IMG/VR virus record: IMGVR_UViG_2737471837_000010
Coordinates: 1 to 41,646 of that record
Length of the DNA: 41,646 nt
Reading direction: 5' to 3' (one strand)
Origin: a virus
Lineage: Duplodnaviria; Heunggongvirae; Uroviricota; Caudoviricetes
The notes beneath the pieces were generated by a model. The model did not search any database and was not told the DNA's origin. It saw nothing but the letters and a program-made list of their open reading frames with translations. Both the position numbers and the translations under genes were made by a program. Numbering within the stretch: position 1 is the stretch's first letter; the number at the start of each line of letters is the position of its first letter. Below, in pieces: positions 5,170-38,922 of the stretch.

Positions 5170-5498
5170 CAGTTCACCACCTGTTCAAACTCTGCGCTGA
5201 ACTCAACACGCAGCATACTGACCCGCGACGACCATTTTGCGCAGGTCACCTTTATCTGCCGCCACTCATAAGGCGGCGTCCACAGAAAGGCTTTCCAGCC
5301 CCCGTGCTCTTCCAGAAACGACTCCAGTACCGTGGCCTCCTCACGGGGGACAGAAAGCGTCACGCTGTACGTTTTCAGGTTGGCATTCAGCCCGGCAGGC
5401 GCTCGCTGGGAATAGCCATCACCAAAGCGCACCTTTCTTACAGAAGGGGCCGAAGCCACATCCATACCGGGTTTCACTTTCCAGCGGAAGGTTTTCAT
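5169..5498 (-). CDS. M: Minor tail protein M
   Basis: 109-aa ORF matching lambda gpM in size and position; stop/start overlap with L and H. Confidence 0.9.
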   Translation of the reverse strand: MKTFRWKVKPGMDVASAPSVRKVRFGDGYSQRAPAGLNANLKTYSVTLSVPREEATVLESFLEEHGGWKAFLWTPPYEWRQIKVTCAKWSSRVSMLRVEFSAEFEQVVN

Positions 5499-8056
5499 CG
5501 TCCACCTCCGGAGAACAGGCCACCATCACGCATCTGTGTCTGAATTTCATCACGGGCACCCTTGCGGGCCATGTCATACACCGCCTTCAGAGCAGCCGGA
5601 CCTATCTGCCCGTTCGTGCCGTCGTTGTTAATCACCACATGGTTATTCTGCTCAAACGTCCCGGACACCTGCGACCGGCTGTCAGCCAGACTGCCCGGTG
5701 TACCGACATAACCACCGGTGGCATAGCCGCGCATCAGCCGGTAGAGATTCCCCACGCCAATCCGGCTGGTTGCCTCCTTCGTGAAGACAAATTCACCACG
5801 GTGAACAATCCCCGCTGGCTCATATTTGCCGCCGGTTCCCGTAAATCCTCCGGTTGCAAAATGGAATTTCGCCGCAGCGGCCTGAATGGCTGTACCGCCT
5901 GATGCGGATGCGCCGCCACCAACAGCCCCGCCAATGGCGCTGCCGATACTCCCGACAATCCCCACCATTGCCTGCTTAAGCAGAATTTCTGTCATCATGG
6001 ACAGCACGGAACGGGTGAAGCTGCGCCAGTTCTGCTCACTGCCGGTCAGCATCGCTGCCATATTCTGTGCAATACCATCAAAGGTCTGCGTGGCTGCACT
6101 TTTTACCTGCGACATACTGTCCGTGGCGCTCTCTTCCCACTCACTCCAGCCGGACTTCAGGCCTGCCATCCAGCTCCCGCGAAGCTGGTCTTCAGCCGCC
6201 CAGGTCTTTTTCTGCTCTGACATGACGTTATTCAGCGCCAGCGGATTATCGCCATACTGTTCCTTCAGGCGCTGTTCCGTGGCTTCCCGTTCTGCCTGCC
6301 GGTCAGTCAGCCCCCGGCTTTTCGCATCAATGGCGGCCCGTTTTGCCCGTTGCTGCTGTGCGAATTTATCCGCCTGCTGCGCCAGCGCGTTCAGGCGCTC
6401 CTGATACGTAACCTTGTCGCCAAGTGCAGCCAGCTGGCGTTTGTACTCCAGCGTCTCATCTTTATGCGCCAGCAGGGATTTCTCCTGTGCGGACAGCTGG
6501 CGACGTTGTGCCGCCTCCTCCAGTACCGCGAACTGACTTTCTGCCTTCCACAAATCCCGGCGCTGCTGGCTGATTTTCTCATTCGCTCCGGCATGCTTCT
6601 CCAGCGTCCGGAGTTCTGCCTGAAGCGTCAGCAGGGCAGCATGAGCACTGTCTTCCTGACGATCGCCCGCAGACACCTTCACGCCGGACTGTTTCGGCTT
6701 TTTCAGCGTCGCTTCATAATCCTTTTTCGCCGCCGCCATCAGTGTGTTGTAATCCGCCTGCAGGATTTTCCCGTCTTTCAGTGCCTTGTTCAGTTCTTCC
6801 TGACGGGCGGTATATTTCTCCAGCGGCGTCTGCAGCCGTTCGTAAGCCTTCTGCGCCTCTTCGGTATATTTCAGCCGTGACGCTTCGGTATCGCTCTGCT
6901 GCTGCGCATTTTTGTCCTGTTGAGTCTGCTGCTCAGCCTTCTTTCGGGCGGCTTCAAGCGCAAGACGGGCCTTTTCACGATCATCCCAGTAACGCGCCCG
7001 CGCTTCATCGTTAACAAAATAATCATCCTTGCGCAGATTCCAGATGTCGTCTGCTTTCTTAAACGCAGCCTCTGCCTTAATCAGCATCTCCTGCGCGGTA
7101 TCAGGACGACCAATATCCAGCACCGCATCCCACATGGATTTGAAGGCCCGCGCAGTCCTGTTTGCCCAGGTCTCCAGCGTGCCCATGTTCTCTTTCAGGC
7201 GGCGGGTCTGGTCATCAAACCCTTTCGTTGCGGCCTCGTTCGCCGCCTGCAATGCCCCGGCTTCATCGCCGGAACGCTGCAACTGAGCAACATACGCAAT
7301 CTGCTCCGCCGTCACGTTATGGAACTGGCGTGCCATCGCCGTCAGCCCCGACGTCGGGTCTGTGGTCAGCTTCCCGAAGGCTTCAGCGACCTTGTCCACC
7401 TCCACGCCGGATGCAGAGGAGAAACGCGCCACACTCTGGCTGATGGACGCAATCTGAGCCTCACCGCTTACCCCCGCCTTAACCAGTGCGCTGAGTGACT
7501 CGCTGGTCTGGTTAAACGTCAGCCCTGCCGCCTGCCCGGCTCTGGACAGGACCAGCATACGATCTGCCGTCAGTCCCGCCTGATTGCCGGAAAGGACCAG
7601 CGTTTTGTTGAAATCGGACAGGGTTGAGTTGCCCTGATACCAGGCATACGCCAGCGCACCGGTCGCCACCGCCAGCGAGGTGGCCCCCACCATCGGCAGG
7701 GTGATCGCACCGGCAAGCCCCCTGAACATGGGGATCATCCCGCCGAAGGAGTCCTTCACCTGCCCCCCCTGTTGCAGCAGGATCAGCCACGGACTTTGCC
7801 CGCCTGCAAGCTGCGTGGCCACGTCGGTGAACTGTGCAGGCAGCATACGCATGGCGGCTTTATACTGCCCGACGGAAATCCCCGCTTTCTGTGCAGCCAG
7901 TGCCTGTCGGCTCAGCGACTGTTCAACGACTGCCGCTGTTTTTTTCGCATCACTTTCCGTACCGGAAAAATGACGCCTGACTCTGGCCATCTGCTCGTCA
8001 AATCTGGCCGCATCCAGACTTAAATCAACGACCAGATCGCCTACCGGTTCAGCCAT
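5495..8056 (-). CDS. H: Tail tape measure protein H
   Basis: 853-aa ORF, the same length as lambda gpH; Ala/Gln-rich coiled-coil centre and Gly-rich C-terminus typical of tape measure proteins. Confidence 0.95.
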   Translation of the reverse strand: MAEPVGDLVVDLSLDAARFDEQMARVRRHFSGTESDAKKTAAVVEQSLSRQALAAQKAGISVGQYKAAMRMLPAQFTDVATQLAGGQSPWLILLQQGGQVKDSFGGMIPMFRGLAGAITLPMVGATSLAVATGALAYAWYQGNSTLSDFNKTLVLSGNQAGLTADRMLVLSRAGQAAGLTFNQTSESLSALVKAGVSGEAQIASISQSVARFSSASGVEVDKVAEAFGKLTTDPTSGLTAMARQFHNVTAEQIAYVAQLQRSGDEAGALQAANEAATKGFDDQTRRLKENMGTLETWANRTARAFKSMWDAVLDIGRPDTAQEMLIKAEAAFKKADDIWNLRKDDYFVNDEARARYWDDREKARLALEAARKKAEQQTQQDKNAQQQSDTEASRLKYTEEAQKAYERLQTPLEKYTARQEELNKALKDGKILQADYNTLMAAAKKDYEATLKKPKQSGVKVSAGDRQEDSAHAALLTLQAELRTLEKHAGANEKISQQRRDLWKAESQFAVLEEAAQRRQLSAQEKSLLAHKDETLEYKRQLAALGDKVTYQERLNALAQQADKFAQQQRAKRAAIDAKSRGLTDRQAEREATEQRLKEQYGDNPLALNNVMSEQKKTWAAEDQLRGSWMAGLKSGWSEWEESATDSMSQVKSAATQTFDGIAQNMAAMLTGSEQNWRSFTRSVLSMMTEILLKQAMVGIVGSIGSAIGGAVGGGASASGGTAIQAAAAKFHFATGGFTGTGGKYEPAGIVHRGEFVFTKEATSRIGVGNLYRLMRGYATGGYVGTPGSLADSRSQVSGTFEQNNHVVINNDGTNGQIGPAALKAVYDMARKGARDEIQTQMRDGGLFSGGGR

Positions 8057-22788: not shown

Positions 22789-23871
22789 ATGAAAAAATTA
22801 ACAGTGGCAATTTCTGCTGTAGCTGCATCAGTACTGATGGCGATGTCTGCTCAGGCAGCTGAAATTTATAATAAAGACAGTAACAAGCTGGATCTGTACG
22901 GGAAAGTTAATGCTAAGCACTACTTCTCCTCTAATGATGCAGATGATGGTGATACTACTTATGCCCGTCTTGGCTTCAAAGGTGAAACCCAAATCAACGA
23001 TCAACTGACTGGTTTCGGTCAGTGGGAATATGAATTCAAAGGCAACCGCGCTGAATCTCAAGGTTCCTCCAAAGACAAAACCCGTCTTGCATTTGCAGGC
23101 CTGAAATTCGGTGACTACGGCTCAATCGATTACGGCCGTAACTACGGTGTAGCATACGACATCGGTGCGTGGACTGACGTTCTGCCAGAATTCGGTGGCG
23201 ATACCTGGACCCAAACAGATGTGTTCATGACTGGTCGCACCACTGGTGTTGCAACTTATCGTAACAACGACTTCTTTGGTCTGGTTGATGGTCTGAACTT
23301 TGCTGCTCAGTATCAGGGTAAAAATGACCGCACTGACGTAACTGAAGCTAATGGTGATGGTTTCGGTTTCTCCACTACTTATGAGTATGAAGGATTCGGT
23401 GTAGGTGCAACCTATGCTAAATCTGACCGCACTAATAATCAGGTTATCTACGGTAACAACAGCCTGAATGCATCTGGTCAAAATGCTGAAGTATGGGCAG
23501 CTGGTCTGAAATATGATGCGAACAACATCTATCTGGCTACCACCTATTCTGAAACCCAGAACATGACTGTTTTTGGTAATAACCATATTGCCAACAAAGC
23601 ACAAAACTTCGAAGTAGTTGCACAATATCAGTTCGACTTCGGTCTGCGTCCGTCCGTTGCTTACCTGCAATCTAAAGGAAAAGACTTGGGTGCGTGGGGT
23701 GATCAGGACCTGGTTGAATATATTGATGTAGGTGCAACCTATTACTTCAACAAAAATATGTCCACTTTTGTTGATTACAAAATCAACCTGATTGATAAGA
23801 GCGATTTCACGAAAGCATCTGGCGTTGCTACCGATGATATCGTTGCTGTAGGTATGGTTTACCAGTTCTAA
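22789..23871 (+). CDS. Phage-borne general porin (OmpC/OmpF/NmpC family)
   Basis: 360-aa ORF with a signal peptide ([23 protein letters not shown]), alternating beta-strand pattern and a C-terminal aromatic residue (YQF). It is oriented opposite to the flanking Q and S genes. Confidence 0.9.
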
Positions 23872-27361: not shown

Positions 27362-29004
27362 AATAAACCTTCAACAATATAAGTAGCCGCCACTTTTTCT
27401 CCGCTCTGTTTATCAAGCTTGAAAAAATTAAAAGTTAGCTTTTCGCCAGAAAAATCCAGTACGCATGCATAGTTAGCACAATCCTGACTTGGCAATTCCG
27501 AACTAACAACTCCTGAACTTCCCAAAGAAACAATTTGGAATGTATGTTCAGGATTTGAATCCGTCACTGGTTCTAACGGAGATAGTTTTTTTGTTATTGT
27601 AATAAAACTACTTCTGTGCATATGACCATGCAGAATATAATCAACTTTATGCCTTACTACCCAACGTAATAATCGCTCTGCATCTAATGTTACACTATAT
27701 CTTGAATCAAGATAGGCATCTTCAACTTCATTAATAGAAGTTAGGTGATGGTGAAGCATAGCAATTCTTATAACACCTTTCTTTTTGAGTATATCTCCTC
27801 CGCTATCATTCATCCATCCCATAGATTTTGCAACATCACTGAGTTGTTGCTCACCGACAAATCCCATGCCCAAAAATGAATCTTTTACTTGTTGTAATAC
27901 GCATGAGTTCAATGCGGCTATTTCAACAACTTTATGGCCACCTAGTAAAAATTTCCTTCCTTGTGATAAATTTTCTTCAGGTTCCCTTTGAAAAAAATCT
28001 CGATAAAATTTTATATAATTAAGTTTACTTTCGCTATGGTAGTTTTCCGCCAGAATTTTCCATGGTTTATCCGTTACAGGCTTACCAACGATTTTAAAGT
28101 ACTCATCTTTAGAAACCAGACCTACATCGTGATTCCCAGGACAAATAATTATATCATCCGTTGTCAGACTAAGAGAAGAACTAACATCTTTGATAAAATT
28201 CAAAGCTTGCTCGAATCCCTCTTTCTGTGACTGCCACGTCAAATCACCTGAAATAGCCAACCCAGCACATTTACTCCCATTATTATATTTTCCAGCCAAC
28301 TCCACCACTCGAGAGGATAAACATTTTAGCTGATCATTATCTTGTGTCGGAAATGCATGTTTCCCATTTCCGCCATCAAAATGAATATCCGAAAGCCAAA
28401 TTATAAACTCCCCTTTTTTTTGGCTATACTTCCGACTGAAATTATAAGGAACATAATGAGATGCTAATGACTCATGCTGTAAATCTTTATCATTTGCAGG
28501 TCTAATCTTCCAAATAGTTCTATCTTGTTTTTTTAATTCAGCTGAAGAAAAGACAATTTTGTTGAAAAGTTGCTCATCTAAATCTTTATTACCTGCAAAC
28601 AATGCATCCAATGGAATATATGTGAATTTTTTGAGGATATCACAAGCATCAATTTCTATAATCTCAGAAACATTTAACCATCCCAGCAACTCATTCTCAT
28701 TATAATATGCTGGGGTTCTGCAACCATCCTTAGGAGATTGCTTTTTTATATCCCCTAAAGCTGACGAGCAAGTATCCTTTAATACAGCGGTATAAAATTT
28801 AAGCCGCCCTGAATCAAAAAAATATATTTGTTTATTTTTTTCTGCCGCATTTTTTAGTTCCAGTGATGGGAAACGCTCACCAGATTTAGCCCACCACCCC
28901 CACCAAACATTCCCTTCTTGGCGAGCAATGTTATTGTGTTGCTCGATGGTAAATCCTTCACTTTTTCCTAGGTCACGGAACCTAAAAATATAGGTTTCAC
29001 ACAT
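27358..29004 (-). CDS. Two-domain protein: unknown Trp-rich N-terminal domain (~190 aa) plus calcineurin-like metallophosphoesterase domain
   Basis: 548-aa ORF carrying metallophosphoesterase signature motifs in the expected order: LSDIHFD, ISGDLTW, CPGNHD, LHHH and HGHMHR. The N-terminal region (VWWGWWAKSG) has no motif I recognise. AT-rich. Confidence 0.8.
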   Translation of the reverse strand: MCETYIFRFRDLGKSEGFTIEQHNNIARQEGNVWWGWWAKSGERFPSLELKNAAEKNKQIYFFDSGRLKFYTAVLKDTCSSALGDIKKQSPKDGCRTPAYYNENELLGWLNVSEIIEIDACDILKKFTYIPLDALFAGNKDLDEQLFNKIVFSSAELKKQDRTIWKIRPANDKDLQHESLASHYVPYNFSRKYSQKKGEFIIWLSDIHFDGGNGKHAFPTQDNDQLKCLSSRVVELAGKYNNGSKCAGLAISGDLTWQSQKEGFEQALNFIKDVSSSLSLTTDDIIICPGNHDVGLVSKDEYFKIVGKPVTDKPWKILAENYHSESKLNYIKFYRDFFQREPEENLSQGRKFLLGGHKVVEIAALNSCVLQQVKDSFLGMGFVGEQQLSDVAKSMGWMNDSGGDILKKKGVIRIAMLHHHLTSINEVEDAYLDSRYSVTLDAERLLRWVVRHKVDYILHGHMHRSSFITITKKLSPLEPVTDSNPEHTFQIVSLGSSGVVSSELPSQDCANYACVLDFSGEKLTFNFFKLDKQSGEKVAATYIVEGLL

Positions 29005-29039
29005 TTACTTCATCCTCAAATGAAAATTGCTCTACAATT

Positions 29040-29070
29040 CTTTTGTTTTATCAGTAAATTATAGTAAATT
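29040..29070 (-). promoter_or_regulatory. Candidate promoter for the metallophosphoesterase/HAD cassette
   Basis: Perfect TATAAT on the minus strand (plus-strand ATTATA at ~29050..29055) about 45 nt upstream of the ORF start; the -35 is weak. Confidence 0.35.
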
Positions 29071-29127
29071 CAAATAATAAACTCTATCTTTTGAAGTGTG
29101 GGAGAGAAGGAAATCACCTCATTACTT

Positions 29128-29838
29128 TCATCCACTAAACCTTTTCCCTCTACATAATCCATGTTTAGCACGCAATTGTTTAATTTTTTCCAAGCTCTGA
29201 ACACGATTAAGCGGCCTGCCGCCCATGACAGGAAGTTGTTTCACCGGTTCAGGGATCGCTTCACCACGGTTAATTCGCGCGGTCATACAGGACAGTTCAT
29301 CGGCAGCCATGCGCCGTAATTCCGCGTCAGTCAACGCATTGGCCCGCATGTTCTGGTACAGGTTGGTAACCAGCCAGTAGTGCGCGTTTGATTTCCATGG
29401 ATAAGACTCTGCATCTGGATACAGGCCACGCTTCCGACAATACTCATAGACCATATCAACCAGCTCGCTGACGTTTGGCAGCCCGGCGTTAACGGATGCT
29501 TCTTCCCGGCACCAGGCGACAAACTGCCCGGGTGATGGCAGGAATGGTCGATTCTGCCGACGGGCTACGCGCATTCCAGCGTTAACCTGTTCCATCGTGG
29601 TGATCCCATTTTCCCGGAAAGCCAGAACCCACTGGCGGCGGATTTCGTTCAGTTCATTCTGGTCCCGGTTAGCCAGGCTCGCCGGGAAAGTTGCCAGTAA
29701 CTGGCTGAACACACCATTGATAATCTGCGCTACCTGCTGTACCTGCGGCTTTTCGTCGTACTGTTCCGGCATGTTATTGGCGATCCGGCGCATCTGCTCA
29801 CGGTCAAAATTAACCATCTGTGCGGCGATGTTTTTCAT
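29128..29838 (-). CDS. P: Replication protein P (DnaB helicase loader)
   Basis: 236-aa ORF MKNIAAQMVNFDREQMRRIANNMPEQYDEKPQVQQVAQIINGVF..., recognised as lambda P. Confidence 0.95.
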   Translation of the reverse strand: MKNIAAQMVNFDREQMRRIANNMPEQYDEKPQVQQVAQIINGVFSQLLATFPASLANRDQNELNEIRRQWVLAFRENGITTMEQVNAGMRVARRQNRPFLPSPGQFVAWCREEASVNAGLPNVSELVDMVYEYCRKRGLYPDAESYPWKSNAHYWLVTNLYQNMRANALTDAELRRMAADELSCMTARINRGEAIPEPVKQLPVMGGRPLNRVQSLEKIKQLRAKHGLCRGKRFSG

Positions 29839-30807
29839 AGCTCCACCCCGTAAATCCAGTCAGTGTTCGTCAGGTCGAGTTTTGGTTTTCCGGCTGTCAC
29901 GCCAGCCTGTTGCTTGTTACGGTTGATTTCGAGCTGGGTCCACTTGTCGCGTAGTTTGGCCGGACTCAGCACGTTACCGGACCAGAAGTTGTCCTGGCAG
30001 GCCCAGCGGAACAGCACGCACATGTCGCGGTGGTTACGTCCGTCACGTTCACGCATCAGGCGGATATCGTTAGCCCACCCTGCAAAATTCGGTTTTCTGG
30101 CTGATGGCGCGATGGTCTTCACCATGTCAAACATCCACTCTGCGGCAGTCAGGTCTTCTGCTGTCCCCCACTTGCTGCCGCTCTGAATCGCAGCATCCGG
30201 TTTCACCACAGAAAGGGCATTTTCTGGCTGGTCAGAGGATTCGTCAGAATTCTCGGACGAAAAAGGTTTTATATTGTCTTTTGTTAGTTTGTCTTTTGTG
30301 TTTACCTGATTCGGGTAAGTGCCTTTACCTGATTTGGGTAAACTTTTCTTACCTGATTCAGGTAAATTTACCTCTTTCAGGTAAACTTTTCTTACCTGAT
30401 TCAGGTAAATTTACCTCTTTCAGGTAAACTTTATTTTTCTTACCTGATTCGGGTAATGTTGACCATTCACTGACCACATTATTGATGCCGATATTCCGCC
30501 CGCTCTGAATAAGAATCCCACGCTTTACCAGAACACTTTTTGCAGCAGAACACTTGTGCGGCAATATCCCGGTTAATTCGGAAAGTTGCTCGTTGCTAAC
30601 CCAATCCAGTTTTTTATTAAAGCCATATGTTTTGCGCATGACAGCCAGAAAGACCAGAAGCTGGTGCTGTGTTAATCCGGCCAGCATCACAGCTTCCAGC
30701 AACTCATTTGCAATGCGCGTATAACCATCATCGAGATCTGCCACGCGCGGCTCCTTTTGTGCCGCATCCGGCACTGGAAAATTGAATATCTCAGCAGTGT
30801 TTGCCAT
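29835..30807 (-). pseudogene. O: Replication initiator O, split by a frameshift inside the iteron region
   Basis: The N-terminal frame (from MANTAEIFNF) stops at 30358. The C-terminal frame, open from ~30410 and ending ...TNTDWIYGVEL, is shifted by one nucleotide. Both frames translate the same LPESGKKSLP from repeated DNA. Confidence 0.7.
30302..30456. repeat. Replication origin iterons: seven ~17-bp TTACCTGATTC(G/A)GGTAA-type repeats, including a 43-bp tandem duplication
   Basis: Copies at ~30302, 30326, 30349, 30368, 30392, 30411 and 30440. Segment 30349..30391 is repeated almost exactly at 30392..30434. Each iteron is an inverted repeat TTACC...GGTAA. Confidence 0.85.
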
Positions 30808-30893
30808 AATTCCTCCCGCAATGAGTGTGTTACGATTTGCACCTGAAAGTCGGTTCTGTTCGCGCAGACCGGCTTTCGCCATTTCCGAACCTG

Positions 30894-31439
30894 TCATATT
30901 GCCCCCAGCATGGTGGTGACCATCGCCATCAGTGGACCAGCCAGATCCGGGTCCACACGAAACATCGACACAATGCCTTCACTCATCTCCTTCAGTTTCT
31001 GGTGGCGTGGTGCGTTGAGAATGACAGCCTGTTTTGCCTCACTGAGTTCCTTTTCCATTTCAGCCAGCCGAGCCATGAAGCTATCCTGCTCAACCAGGTG
31101 GCCGCGATATTCCAGCGGTAGTACCGCCAGAATTGCCGGGGTCAGTTCACGCACGTTATTTCGGTATTTTTCAGAATCGAATTTGTTATCGAGGAAGCGG
31201 AACAGCTTCTGGCGTGCACGGCTGACATCATCAGGGAAATCGATGGTGCCGCCGCCCTGCTCCCGATACTCATTCACAATGAGTGCGGCAACAACATCCT
31301 GATTATCTGCAGCCGACCAGGCGCGGACGGCATCACGGATTTTTTCGTGGCCTGGAGCTTGTTTTGTTTGAGAACGATTTATCACCGCAGTCGGGCTAAA
31401 TCCGCTAGTCTGTTGGTATGTAAGTGGTTGCATAGTCAT
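30894..31439 (-). CDS. YdaT-like protein in the cII position
   Basis: 181-aa ORF downstream of the cro-like gene; segments EYREQGGGT and LTPAILAVLPLEYRGHL resemble my recollection of Rac prophage YdaT. No clear helix-turn-helix. Confidence 0.55.
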   Translation of the reverse strand: MTMQPLTYQQTSGFSPTAVINRSQTKQAPGHEKIRDAVRAWSAADNQDVVAALIVNEYREQGGGTIDFPDDVSRARQKLFRFLDNKFDSEKYRNNVRELTPAILAVLPLEYRGHLVEQDSFMARLAEMEKELSEAKQAVILNAPRHQKLKEMSEGIVSMFRVDPDLAGPLMAMVTTMLGAI

Positions 31440-31463
31440 TGCCTTATCAGTTAACGCCGCAGA

Positions 31464-31691
31464 TTAGGCGGCAGAATTACTCGCGTTAAACAATGGTGCG
31501 AGGTCGGGACGAATATCTGCTGGTTTAATCTTTCCACCAGTGGCTGAGACAATTTTCATTACATAGCGGGCATCAATTCCGCCACCGTGTAGCCAACGCC
31601 AAACAGTGGGCTGGGCTACACCGCATAGATCTGCCAGTCGCTTTTGACTACCTGTAATACTGATTGCGAGTTGAATGGTTTGATTTGTCAT
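31464..31691 (-). CDS. Cro-like helix-turn-helix regulator (YdaS-like)
   Basis: About 75 aa with an HTH (QKRLADLCGVAQPTVWRWL); divergently transcribed from the repressor gene. Confidence 0.75.
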   Translation of the reverse strand: MTNQTIQLAISITGSQKRLADLCGVAQPTVWRWLHGGGIDARYVMKIVSATGGKIKPADIRPDLAPLFNASNSAA

Positions 31692-31697
31692 TATCAA

Positions 31698-31801
31698 TTC
31701 CTATTGGTATTGCAATGAATGAATAATAGCAATGCGTATTAATCCAAGCAATAGCCAAACGTGTTTTGACCATCAATACGCAAGCGTATAAATTAAAACT
31801 T
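31698..31801. promoter_or_regulatory. Immunity control region: divergent pR (minus) and pRM-like (plus) promoters with operator repeats
   Basis: Minus strand: -35 TTGCTT, 17-nt spacer, -10 TATTAT (plus coordinates ~31746..31751 and ~31723..31728). Plus strand: -35 TTGACC at 31766..31771 and -10 TATAAAT at ~31787..31793, placing the start near the cI ATG at 31802. AATAGCAAT-type motifs recur here and at pL. Confidence 0.6.
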
Positions 31802-32494
31802 ATGAAAAAAGAAACTCTTGCTGATCGCTTAAACCTAGCGATGGAACAATCTGGAATGTCTCAAGGCGCTCTTGCAAAGGCGTCTGGCGTAGCTCAACCC
31901 ACAATCTGGAGACTGACAAGCGGCAACGCGCGCGGCTCAACAAAAATTGTTGAAATAGCTAATGCATTGGGTGTTCGAACAGAATGGCTCTCATCAGGCA
32001 TAGGCCCGATGAGAAATGACGGTCAACAATCAGGGAAGCCTGCTGTCAGCCATTCCAAATACTTCAAAATTGACGTTCTTGATATAGAAGTCAGTGCCGG
32101 GCCGGGAGTCATCAACCGTGAGTTTGTAGAAGTTCTACGCTCGGTTGAGTACTCGTTTGACGATGCTCGTCACATGTTCGATGGCAGGAAGGCAGAAAAT
32201 ATCCGCATCATTAACGTGCGTGGTGACAGCATGTCAGGAACGATCGAACCAGGTGATCTGCTGTTCGTTGATATCACGGTTAAATCTTTCGACGGTGATG
32301 GTATCTATGCATTTCTGTACGACGACACCGCCCATGTAAAGCGCCTGCAAATGATGAAGGATAAACTGCTGGTTATCTCTGATAACAAGAGCTACTCACC
32401 GTGGGACCCTATCGAGAAAGACGAGATGAACCGGGTGTTTATCTTCGGGAAAGTTATTGGGAGCATGCCGCAGACCTACAGGAAGCATGGGTAG
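31802..32494 (+). CDS. cI: Prophage repressor cI (HTH plus S24 LexA-like autopeptidase domain); ATG at 31802 preferred over the ORF track's TTG at 31766
   Basis: N-terminal HTH (LADRLNLAMEQSGMSQGALAKASGVAQPTIWR), Ala-Gly cleavage site (EVSAGPG) and Ser/Lys dyad motifs (GDSMSG ... HVKRL). The TTG at 31766 coincides with the -35 hexamer. Confidence 0.85.
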   Translation: MKKETLADRLNLAMEQSGMSQGALAKASGVAQPTIWRLTSGNARGSTKIVEIANALGVRTEWLSSGIGPMRNDGQQSGKPAVSHSKYFKIDVLDIEVSAGPGVINREFVEVLRSVEYSFDDARHMFDGRKAENIRIINVRGDSMSGTIEPGDLLFVDITVKSFDGDGIYAFLYDDTAHVKRLQMMKDKLLVISDNKSYSPWDPIEKDEMNRVFIFGKVIGSMPQTYRKHG

Positions 32495-32530
32495 GTAGTA
32501 TGTAAAGAATTACCTTTGGTTGATTTGTAA

Positions 32531-32560
32531 TAGCTACCGATTACGTTATCGGTAGCTATA
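32531..32560 (+). terminator. 12-bp perfect inverted repeat with 6-nt loop after cI (terminator or protein-binding palindrome)
   Basis: ATAGCTACCGAT-TACGTT-ATCGGTAGCTAT followed by AAGAAATTTTTAT. Confidence 0.4.
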
Positions 32561-32616
32561 AGAAATTTTTATGTCTTTACTGTGTTTATTTATTCAATAC
32601 TAGTTGGACTATAGCA

Positions 32617-33639
32617 ATGAAAGATAACAGACAAAAAGTCGTTCATTATAAAAAAGCAGTAATCCCACACAGCAAATCATCATTACAAAACATACTACTT
32701 AGTATTATAGGTGAGGGCGGCGTTGCAGAAAAAGTACTTAGTAGACAAGAAAAAATAACACCTTCAGATGAAAATTCGGGGTATCGTTTCTTAAATAAAA
32801 GCGACACATACAAAACTATACTTTTTGGGCAACTGGTTTTATTTGAAAAAGACAAAAGCCAGTCTCTATTAGAGCTTAGTGATAATGTTAAATTTTATGA
32901 CATTAACTCCATCACGTCTAATGATATAATTATTGATGGAGATAAACGTAGTGACAAAAAAAGAGAGTTTGTAGATTCAATTTTATATTTTGGTGTACTA
33001 AACAACCATGTCATGATCGTTCAATCCACATCGCTTCGAGCAAGGGAGCTTGAGGCGCATTTGAATTGGCTAATTAATACATTCACAGATGAAAAAGAAT
33101 CTGTGTTAATGCTTCAAGATAAGCCATCCGAAGAAACGATGAAAAAAATGGAGAAAGCACCAGCCAAGAGCATAAAAATTGGTGGATTACCCATTACTTC
33201 AGAAGTTAAAAATTCAGAGAACCAAACACCCTCCTTTTCAAATGGTTCGGTGAAGACAATAAAATACCGCCCAATAGGGAAAGGAGGTGCGCTACTAAAA
33301 GCATTTTTTGGCGATAACTGGGCAAATGATATAAACATTAAAGATTCATTAGATGAGGCCAATTTACAAGTAAGCCTCGAGATTACATACTTCAGAAAAA
33401 CAAATGATAGCGGTCAAGCTGTTATAGACAGTATTGCTACCTCACTACGACATCTAGATGAGGATGATATTAGCATCAAACTTCAAGGCGGTGGGGAAAT
33501 AACGGGAAAAGAGATAAAATTATCCGGAAAAATTAGCGTTGAACATAACAATGGCATTATTGATGAAAATGATTTATTCTTAAAAATGCATAAGTGGCTG
33601 TTCTCAAAACTTGATGCCGGAGAATTGGTTGCAAAATAA
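32617..33639 (+). CDS. Unknown 340-aa soluble protein in the rexA position
   Basis: Long AT-rich ORF immediately downstream of cI on the same strand; Lys/Asp/Glu-rich with no catalytic motif I recognise. Confidence 0.75.
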   Translation: MKDNRQKVVHYKKAVIPHSKSSLQNILLSIIGEGGVAEKVLSRQEKITPSDENSGYRFLNKSDTYKTILFGQLVLFEKDKSQSLLELSDNVKFYDINSITSNDIIIDGDKRSDKKREFVDSILYFGVLNNHVMIVQSTSLRARELEAHLNWLINTFTDEKESVLMLQDKPSEETMKKMEKAPAKSIKIGGLPITSEVKNSENQTPSFSNGSVKTIKYRPIGKGGALLKAFFGDNWANDINIKDSLDEANLQVSLEITYFRKTNDSGQAVIDSIATSLRHLDEDDISIKLQGGGEITGKEIKLSGKISVEHNNGIIDENDLFLKMHKWLFSKLDAGELVAK

Positions 33640-33660
33640 CCTACCAAAAGGAGGGCGATA

Positions 33661-34167
33661 ATGAAATCGAACATCATCCACCTTATTGGTATGTTGGTCT
33701 TCTATGTTGCTGGTTACTTTTTGTTCAAGTCAGCATTGGGCTATATTACACCGGGTGTTGTCCTAACAGCTCCGTGGGCTGTGGTTGGACTCATGCAATT
33801 GCCATTATCATATTGTATACAAGCCATTTTTAAGGCAAATGAGGCCAATGACCACTCGTCTTTAACCCCTAGTGAGGTTAGGCGATTAGTGCCAATAGTC
33901 AAATCCAAGAGACTGAAATTGGTTTTATTATTAGCTTTCTATGTATTTTCAACTTTGTTTGTAATCTTGGGGTTAATAGCAAGCACAAATGATCAAGCCC
34001 TACTCTTCAGGGTCTTAAAAATTTCAGGTGGATTACTCTTTATTTCTCTCTATACCAGTGTATTCGTTCATAAAATAATGGTTGAGCTTCAAGAGTTTAA
34101 AGCGTTATTAAACCGAAGAGAATCAGAGAAGAAGGAAAGAGAGTCACTCCTTGATAGATTAAAATGA
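33661..34167 (+). CDS. Unknown 168-aa polytopic membrane protein (four predicted TM helices) in the rexB position
   Basis: Strong AGGAGGG ribosome-binding site. Four hydrophobic segments (IIHLIGMLVFYVAGYFLF, VVLTAPWAVVGLMQLPLSYCIQAIF, LKLVLLLAFYVFSTLFVILGLIAS, GGLLFISLYTSVFVHKIM) and a charged C-terminal tail. Confidence 0.8.
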   Translation: MKSNIIHLIGMLVFYVAGYFLFKSALGYITPGVVLTAPWAVVGLMQLPLSYCIQAIFKANEANDHSSLTPSEVRRLVPIVKSKRLKLVLLLAFYVFSTLFVILGLIASTNDQALLFRVLKISGGLLFISLYTSVFVHKIMVELQEFKALLNRRESEKKERESLLDRLK

Positions 34168-34174
34168 CCCCCCT

Positions 34175-34202
34175 CCCCGGCCGTCGTGCCGGGTTTTCTT
34201 TT
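34175..34202 (+). terminator. Rho-independent terminator closing the cI/rex-slot transcription unit
   Basis: Hairpin CCCCGGC-CGTCGT-GCCGGG followed by TTTTCTTTT, starting 8 nt after the stop of the membrane-protein gene. Confidence 0.7.
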
Positions 34203-34319
34203 GCCTCCCCTCATCACACACCGTTCAAAAAACCACCATGCCCCTGCTTCAGTTATCGCTATGCGATGCAAGTCACAAAATTAATTCTTTTTGCTATCAA
34301 ACATTTAATATCAAAACAC

Positions 34320-34380
34320 ATCAGCCAATAGCAATAAGTATTGATATCACCAATAGCAATAGCTATTATCATCATATCGC
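34320..34380 (+). promoter_or_regulatory. pL-like promoter with overlapping operator repeats
   Basis: -35 TTGATA (34341..34346), 17-nt spacer, -10 TATTAT (34364..34369). Operator-like repeats CCAATAGCAATAAGTATTG and CCAATAGCAATAGCTATT overlap the promoter. Confidence 0.6.
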
Positions 34381-34562
34381 AACAACACAACGATACGGCA
34401 ACCACCTGATTCACCGTTGCGATGACCGCTTAGATCCGTAGCTTGAATTTCAGCAGGCTCCGGGAAGTGCGAGGGGTGAAGCGGACGCGTGAACGTCGGT
34501 GTGACCAGCTGAAATTAACTCAACATTTCATACCTCAGTCGCTTCAACGAGGCGGCTTAGTT

Positions 34563-34853
34563 ATGACAACCGGCGGCCATCCACCGCCTGAATACGCGCA
34601 GAAGTCTTTATATGTTCAGCAGCCCAGCTTACGGGCAGGAGTTTTTATGGTTCATCAACATTACGGAACGCAGACCGTTAATCGCGGTGCGGTCATGCCA
34701 GGAATGCTGGTCAAACACAAAGATGGTACCTGGACAGCATCAGCTAATTTACGCGGACGGCTATATCTGCATCGCGGCATCGAGCGCACTTATACCCGTG
34801 ATTTGCTCGTGGAAGTTTTTCTCGACGGACGAGGCAACGGCCTGAATCACTAA
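34563..34853 (+). CDS. Hypothetical protein in the N / kil-cIII position; the ORF track extends the frame to a TTG at 34443
   Basis: 96 aa from the ATG preceded by GAGG; the extended frame contains an arginine-rich stretch (GVKRTRERR). No recognisable lambda N, kil or cIII sequence. Confidence 0.5.
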   Translation: MTTGGHPPPEYAQKSLYVQQPSLRAGVFMVHQHYGTQTVNRGAVMPGMLVKHKDGTWTASANLRGRLYLHRGIERTYTRDLLVEVFLDGRGNGLNH

Positions 34854-34928
34854 TCCCCTTTCCTGTTTTCCTAATCAGCCTGGCATTTCGCGGGCGATAT
34901 TTTCACAGCCATTTTCAGGAGTTCAGCC

Positions 34929-35225
34929 ATGAACGCTTATTACATTCAGGATCGTCTTGAGGCTCAGAGCTGGGCGCGTCACTACCAGCAGATTGCCCGT
35001 GAAGAGAAAGAGGCAGAACTGGCAGACGACATGGAAAAAGGTCTTCCACAGCACCTGTTTGAATCACTCTGCATCGATCATTTGCAACGCCACGGGGCCA
35101 GCAAAAAAGCCATTACCCGTGCATTTGATGACGATGTTGAGTTTCAGGAGCGCATGGCAGAACACATCCGGTACATGGTTGAAACCATTGCTCACCATCA
35201 GGTTGATATTGATTCAGAGGTATAA
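34929..35225 (+). CDS. gam: Gam (RecBCD inhibitor), short 98-aa form only
   Basis: [47 protein letters not shown]..., recognised as lambda Gam. The upstream in-frame extension is closed by a TAA 19 codons before the ATG. Confidence 0.9.
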
Positions 35226-38754: not shown

Positions 38755-38922
38755 ATGCACTTCCGAGTCACAGGAGAATGGAATGGAGAGCCATTCAACA
38801 GAGTTATCGAAGCGGAGAACATCAACGACTGCTACGACCACTGGATGATATGGGCGCAGATAGCACATGCAGACGTAACCAATATTCGAATTGAAGAACT
38901 GAAAGAACACCAAGCCGCCTGA
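38755..38922 (+). CDS. Lambda orf55-like small protein
   Basis: Hand-translated 55-codon frame MHFRVTGEWNGEPFNRVIEAENINDCYDHWMIWAQIAHADVTNIRIEELKEHQAA; below the ORF track's size cutoff. Confidence 0.6.
   Translation: MHFRVTGEWNGEPFNRVIEAENINDCYDHWMIWAQIAHADVTNIRIEELKEHQAA

Follow-up and report, generated by a model that had tools for sequence, protein, structure and literature searches.

A 43-bp Iteron Duplication Splits the Replication Initiator Gene O of a Lambda-Like Prophage in Escherichia coli

The window, i.e., the whole stretch of 41,646 nucleotides analyzed here, is a lambda-like prophage that occupies the lambda attachment site, beside ybhC, in a strain of Escherichia coli, and its gene O is split by a perfect 43-bp tandem duplication of two iterons of the replication origin. 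It is highly likely that the lesion arose recently and has inactivated the replication initiator of this lambdoid prophage and, as far as computational analysis can tell, the prophage is very probably replication-defective. A preliminary description of this DNA had left three readings side by side, namely, a prophage that has become replication-defective through iteron expansion, a repeat count created by an assembly or slippage artefact, and an O supplied as two polypeptides; the first of them appears to be by far the best supported. The duplication is ordinary and strain-specific: the allele is new, but both the kind of lesion and the module are well known. It leaves the current understanding unchanged and provides a small, clean example of the disarming of a prophage.

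The Prophage and Its Replication Module

According to the list of open reading frames (ORFs) and to Pfam, the genes of the replication module follow the same order as in lambda, i.e., cI, cro, a gene in the cII position, O, and P, and the early-right operon of the window, including both pieces of O, is read on the minus strand. The components of the module are as follows:

31766..32494, plus strand: CI-type repressor, helix-turn-helix plus S24 peptidase
31464..31697, minus strand: helix-turn-helix gene in the Cro position, YdaS/P22_Cro-like
30894..31439, minus strand: YdaT-domain gene in the cII position (Pfam YdaT_toxin, E = 8e-30)
30358..30807, minus strand: truncated O of 149 aa, 143 native residues plus ERGKFT, with the stop codon TGA at 30360-30358
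29835..30410, minus strand: C-terminal O frame, open and offset by +1, covering the linker plus the C-terminal domain
29128..29838, minus strand: gene P, helicase loader, intact (Pfam Phage_lambda_P, E = 2.5e-61)

The gene in the Cro position is the first one in the rightward operon that expresses O, and the YdaT-domain gene, which is annotated as cII-like in related phages, lies directly upstream of O. P is located immediately downstream, and its ATG start codon overlaps the stop codon of O (ATGA). The locus, therefore, displays most of the traits of a lambda-type O/P module, including a Phage_rep_O domain, a lambda-like C-terminal domain, an origin inside O, and P downstream, but it lacks one continuous O frame joining both domains. 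Because of this discontinuity, the O locus ranks as a pseudogene of this family rather than as a working member. Apart from the lesion in O, the prophage looks complete.

Directly after P, in the position of ren/nin in lambda, the segment 26525-29004 (minus strand) contains two genes that are common to strain FHI_NMBU_03 and to the OkiPb017xx strains described below. The first one encodes a protein of 548 aa that combines a PUA-like domain and a calcineurin-type metallophosphatase, and the second one a HAD-family hydrolase of 278 aa with a full-length match to the PADLOC defence-system model 'Hydrolase' PDLC03008 (E = 4e-57); the pair looks like a two-gene defence cargo. Directly downstream of CI, in the rexA/rexB position of lambda, two ORFs on the plus strand, 32617-33639 (340 aa) and 33661-34167 (168 aa), have no match in Pfam or PADLOC and are hypothetical in relatives; both are candidate lysogen-expressed genes of uncharacterised function. 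The late region carries DLP12-type genes (quuD, essD, rrrD, and nohD, following the annotation of sister strains), and amid them, between a Q-type antiterminator and the lysis genes, lies a gene for an OmpC-family porin of 360 aa (22789-23871, plus strand).

The Iteron Array and the 43-bp Tandem Duplication

The pattern TTACCNNNNNNNGGTAA (TTACC-N7-GGTAA) occurs seven times in the window, as compared with 0.02 occurrences expected by chance, and all of them fall within 30302..30456. Starting from the side of the O start codon, the iterons and the A+T-rich stretch that adjoins them are:

30440..30456: iteron I1, O-sense TTACCCGAATCAGGTAA, nearest to the O start
30411..30427: iteron I2, O-sense TTACCTGAAAGAGGTAA
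30392..30408: iteron I3, O-sense TTACCTGAATCAGGTAA
30368..30384: iteron I2', duplicate of I2, absent from relatives
30349..30365: iteron I3', duplicate of I3, containing the TGA (30360-30358) that ends the N-terminal frame
30325..30341: iteron I4, O-sense TTACCCAAATCAGGTAA
30302..30318: iteron I5, O-sense TTACCCGAATCAGGTAA, adjoining the A+T-rich region
30260..30301: A+T-rich stretch of 42 bp, 76% A+T versus 50% in the window

The A+T-rich stretch is presumed to be the unwinding element of the origin, and its placement relative to the iterons is that of the high-AT region of lambda, which lies beside ITN4 (PMC6022878). With dyad iterons beside an A+T-rich stretch inside O, the layout is of the lambda type and the array marks the origin, as had been proposed from the first inspection. 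This seven-iteron origin may still be working in cis.

Tandem Repeats Finder reports a repeat of period 43 at 30337..30432, with 2.2 copies, 100% matches, and no indels, and the identity at an offset of 43 is unbroken over 30337..30389. The duplicated segment can be divided as follows:

30337-30379: copy A, exactly equal to copy B
30380-30422: copy B, exactly equal to copy A, with the next 10 bp matching too
30423-30432: third copy of the 10-mer GGTAAACTTT, directly after copy B
Junction of the duplication: CCTCTTTCAGGTAAACTTTTCTTACCTGATTCAGG

The bases inserted with respect to all relatives are the 43 bp of copy B or, equivalently, those of copy A, and the choice of the unit boundary is immaterial, since either 43-bp deletion yields an identical sequence. 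The tandem 43-bp duplication announced in the preliminary description is, thus, real, but the boundaries given there (30349..30391 and 30392..30434) overrun it by two bases that differ between the copies. The duplicated unit does span two ori iterons, and the comparison with related prophages that had been called for gives five iterons in the relatives and seven in the window.

Consequences for Gene O

The start codon of O is most plausibly the ATG at 30807, whose product (MANTAEIF) aligns with the beginning of lambda O (MTNTAKIL) and which has a GGAGG just upstream. A longer start is annotated, ATG 30897, giving an ORF at 30358..30897 with 30 additional residues. Antisense to the start of O (30782-30877, plus strand), a promoter-like TTGAAT-17-CATAAT, with a TG upstream of it, precedes a strong hairpin at approximately 30844-30877 (94-nt fold, z = -3.0), an arrangement placed like the pO/oop antisense RNA of lambda; Rfam gave no match for this element, nor for any other part of the scanned region 28500-35000. 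Since the antisense element falls within the 30 extra codons of the long start, it can be argued that ATG 30807 is the true start of O.

Because the origin is located inside O and 43 is 3 × 14 + 1, i.e., not a multiple of three, the duplication shifts the O frame. The N-terminal frame stops at 30358 and the lambda-like C-terminal frame is open from 30410 with an offset of +1, just as had been read from the sequence earlier. The N-terminal fragment ends in six foreign residues because its stop codon sits inside a duplicated iteron, and it keeps the complete iteron-binding Phage_rep_O domain (PF04492; E = 3.3e-35, profile positions 1-95 of 95, residues 21-115). In the other half, the 124 residues from VVKPDAAIQ to the end show only two differences from lambda O in the alignment. 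The C-terminal frame (29835..30410) lacks an ATG; the earliest codon at which its translation could start is GTG 30209, upstream of which neither a Shine–Dalgarno nor a purine-rich sequence is found.

The expectation that removal of one copy would restore an O of lambda size is borne out: deletion of one copy fuses the two halves into a single ORF of 1020 nt, which corresponds to an O of 309 aa (339 aa as annotated), and the repaired 309-aa protein differs from the intact one of strain FHI_NMBU_03 in one residue (S185P). No entry of the PDB matches O by sequence. For annotation, 30358-30807 and 29835-30410 should be treated as one frameshifted pseudogene, and a probable inability to replicate should be recorded for the prophage.

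Relatives and Rarity of the Duplicated Allele

Among E. coli and phage records, 3,300 and 170, respectively, matched a 1151-bp query across O. In every full-length match, including the top E. coli matches and 15 isolated phages, the matched span is 1108 bp versus the 1151 bp of the query and O is annotated as an intact 'replication protein', and the alignment shows a clean gap of 43 columns in three relatives, including strain FHI_NMBU_03 and the isolated phage Lambda_4C10. The duplicated array had a full match in none of the 2,449 E. coli records with this origin, and the wild-type array length was exact in 56 of 60 records, evenly sampled from 2,452. A single copy of the unit and an intact O characterize the functional phages and approximately 2,400 complete E. 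coli genomes with this origin, which speaks for the replication-defective reading. Moreover, the junction, either exact or degenerate, is absent from species-representative genomes, viral contigs, and metagenome contigs; these junction searches yield rarity alone, with no second occurrence. At the protein level, none of the seven truncated O products that are possible with alternative starts appears among 15 billion proteins, and intact O protein was found on 489 + 95 contigs.

The window is 99.9% identical to the prophage of strain OkiPb01701, which carries a single copy of the 43-bp unit, and a near-identical prophage is found at the lambda attachment site, by ybhC, in eight OkiPb017xx strains from bovine faeces. 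The differences between the window and the Oki prophage amount to approximately 10 SNPs in 41.6 kb, one 1-bp indel, IS421, and the 43-bp duplication, and a distance of only about 10 SNPs from the sister prophage implies that the duplication is very young. In OkiPb01701 (locus L004, 34060-37970), IS421 lies in the tape-measure gene and O is intact; in the window, the tape-measure gene (5495-8056, minus strand) is intact, with 853 aa, and stands beside a broken O. One prophage lineage has suffered two independent knock-outs, namely, IS421 in the OkiPb017xx strains and the O duplication in the window. In addition, a 55-aa ORF upstream of xis (38755-38922, plus strand) is intact in the window, and its counterpart in OkiPb01701, with a 1-bp difference at window position 38906, is annotated as frameshifted.

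Origin of the Duplication and Expected Phenotype

In the wild-type origin, the spacings of iterons I1 to I5 are 29/19/24/23, and the duplicated unit corresponds to 19 + 24 = 43. The 10-mer GGTAAACTTT occurs twice there, at this same distance of 43 bp, and, on the plus strand, each copy comprises the final five bases of an iteron (I4 and I2, respectively) and the beginning of the next spacer. Such a 10-bp direct repeat with a period of 43 bp is an ideal substrate for slippage, and duplication between short direct repeats by slippage or unequal exchange is an established process. Strand slippage during replication, or unequal exchange between sister strands, would have taken place between the two 10-mers and duplicated the intervening 43 bp, thereby adding I2 and I3 again and extending the array from five to seven iterons. 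Exact loss of one 43-bp copy would restore O.

The two parts of lambda O have different binding partners, namely, the iterons for the N-terminal part and P, which brings in DnaB, for the C-terminal part; replication is lost upon small indels in O, and such indels are recovered as survivors of the induction of an excision-deficient prophage, a selection known as 'replicative killing' (PMC6022878). Since a fragment without the C-terminal half cannot recruit P–DnaB, the prophage of the window should not replicate after induction, i.e., P–DnaB would not be brought to the origin, theta replication would not be started, and no normal burst would be produced. Another prophage of this O type, if present in the source strain, could provide a complementing O; OkiPb01701 contains only one such locus, and the complementation of O in trans is poor and is blocked by co-expressed P (PMC6022878). 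The natural seven-iteron origin, together with the IS421 sister prophage, could be used in studies of iteron number or of prophage decay.

An Allelic Series at This Type of Origin

Public assemblies list the 124-aa C-terminal ORF as a gene of its own in at least 113 blocks. Ten places were read, plus two variants from the genome search, and they include the following alleles:

L016: four iterons (-23 bp), O annotated as frameshifted
L006: three iterons (-47 bp), O split
L017: two iterons (-72 bp), O ORF intact and 24 residues shorter
L007 and L009: one iteron (-95 bp), O split
L008: 1-bp deletion in a spacer, O split
L013: nonsense codon, O split
L011 (GCA_900195685.1, 2338-2503), lambda-type origin: perfect 83-bp tandem duplication, O split
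L014, lambda-type origin: 7-bp deletion, O split

Among the variants in iteron number, O is broken exactly where the deletion is not a multiple of three, as predicted by a mod-3 table of the distances between iterons, and the allelic series of 1, 2, 3, 4, 5, and 7 iterons obeys the multiple-of-three rule exactly. Thus, since the repeats of the origin are inside O, most changes in repeat number also destroy the initiator. Within this type of origin, the other variants in iteron number are all contractions, and the window is the only expansion seen. The 83-bp duplication of L011 covers the A+T-rich and linker part and constitutes an independent, second out-of-frame tandem duplication in an origin. 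Both this duplication and the variants in iteron number are rearrangements that took place between short repeats within the origin.

The eight split-O loci found through the 124-aa C-terminal ORF were considered as an argument for the origin being a mutational hotspot. This argument was dropped because the sample is biased, as lesions located upstream would give a different ORF call; the sample shows recurrence, not a hotspot. Phage D2 (OM475427.1, locus L002, 1536-2557) was likewise considered as a viable phage with a split O and was rejected, since its O, annotated as two genes, is an out-of-frame join instead, in which nucleotides 1-336 of this O type are joined to DNA 100% identical to lambda from O nucleotide 214. 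The O of this 'partial genome' is probably a chimeric assembly of two phages and, for that reason, D2 is uninformative on the function of a two-piece O.

Alternative Explanations

The duplicated array might be an artefact of sequencing or assembly, or a mutation that appeared in the sequenced culture, in which case the natural strain would have five iterons and an intact O. The uniqueness of the allele, which is absent from approximately 2,450 E. coli records with this origin and from all of the scanned collections, would agree with this explanation, and so would the single copy in the closest sister strains and the fact that repeat arrays are classic trouble spots for assemblers. Nevertheless, apart from a 10-mer, nothing in the wild type recurs with a 43-bp period and, hence, there is no loop in the assembly graph at the usual k. 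Moreover, the k-mers of the junction are novel with respect to the wild-type prophage (4, 10, and 20 of them at k = 15, 21, and 31, respectively), so wild-type reads cannot produce it. Assemblers collapse repeats rather than expand them, and the errors of long reads are short homopolymer indels and not exact 43-bp copies; a mutation born in culture would, in turn, remain a real allele. An artefact, as raised at the outset, seems therefore unlikely. It is scarcely credible, on the other hand, that O is functional, either because the separate halves assemble or because +1 frameshifting or transcript slippage gives full-length O, which would use the seven-iteron origin. The linker encoded by the iterons does tolerate a change in length, as the intact two-iteron allele is 24 residues shorter, and AAG AAA AGT is present within the 50-nt overlap of the two frames (30361-30410), where a +1 slip of the lysine tRNA on four A's could yield traces of full-length O with a 14-residue insertion. 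However, this overlap, in which a +1 shift is needed, contains no CUU-UGA-type site, no upstream Shine–Dalgarno stimulator, and no run of nine or more A's, so that a programmed recoding signal would be reduced to a four-A run in an arrangement present in no relative. The proposal that O is supplied as two polypeptides is not supported either, as the second half, devoid of ATG, would have to start at GTG 30209 without a Shine–Dalgarno sequence. In addition, according to the lambda model, an untethered C-terminal domain could not bring P–DnaB to the origin (PMC6022878), and the split arrangement is kept in no other genome searched, which gives no sign of its maintenance.

The lesion could also have been selected, as host protection or as a reversible switch, instead of being the result of neutral decay, although this is very unlikely. 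O-null alleles would spare cells from killing by the induced prophage, and indels in O are typical survivors of 'replicative killing' (PMC6022878). Furthermore, incoming phages with this origin type could be hindered by the N-terminal fragment and the enlarged array, since the iterons of oop-ori-lambda, when borne on plasmids, exclude phages that depend on the lambda replication system (PMC3349717). Different knock-outs are found in sister lineages, i.e., IS421 in the tape-measure gene and the duplication in O, and public assemblies contain repeated instances of a split O. Slipped misalignment also makes a perfect 43-bp tandem repeat inherently revertible. However, selection is not demonstrable from a single occurrence, the survey behind the recurring split O is biased because the queried ORF is precisely what such lesions create, and the published exclusion by iterons requires multicopy plasmids. 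Likewise, since the rightward promoter in front of O is repressed, a stable lysogen is not expected to produce the fragment. A 43-bp unit present twice does not constitute a typical contingency repeat and, in contrast to a phase-variable locus, 56 of the 60 sampled arrays have the wild-type length and the sister strains all have one copy. It is highly improbable that the iteron array in O acts as a reversible kill-switch of the prophage, whose off-state fragment and seven-iteron decoy would block phages of the same origin; if it did, slippage by a length indivisible by three would turn O off through the 43-bp gain and on again through the loss of a copy. The literature search returned nothing relevant on a dominant-negative N-terminal fragment of O or on O pseudogenes in cryptic prophages. 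A recent loss-of-function mutation is the preferred explanation.

Comparison with Known Systems

The origin of the window resembles that of lambda in that the central part of O contains hyphenated-dyad iterons and, next to them, an A+T-rich stretch, and the C-terminal domain of O is near-identical in both. However, lambda has four iterons of the type TCCCTC..GAGGGA, whereas the wild type of this origin has five of the type TTACC-N7-GGTAA, the N-terminal domain of O shares only about 44% identity with its lambda counterpart, and lambda cII is replaced in the window by a YdaT-domain protein. As in the RK- ilr mutants of lambda, the lesion is a small indel in O (PMC6022878). By contrast, the classical ori mutants of lambda (r95, r96, r98, and ti12) are in-frame deletions of 12-24 bp, and the window carries an out-of-frame duplication of 43 bp.

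The Stx phages 933W and P27 provide a close parallel, since their six-iteron origin has two extra iterons that fall in the linker of O (PMC7466680). In these phages, however, the two extra iterons are in frame and add 13 residues, O is intact, the phages replicate, and plasmid replication depends on the extra iterons (PMC7466680), whereas in the window 43 mod 3 = 1 and O is destroyed. Finally, the window shares with the cryptic prophages DLP12, Rac, and Qin the condition of a resident lambdoid prophage that has lost a function for lytic growth. Nevertheless, while DLP12, Rac, and Qin are old remnants with large deletions, the window displays a single, revertible 43-bp event that is about 10 SNPs old.
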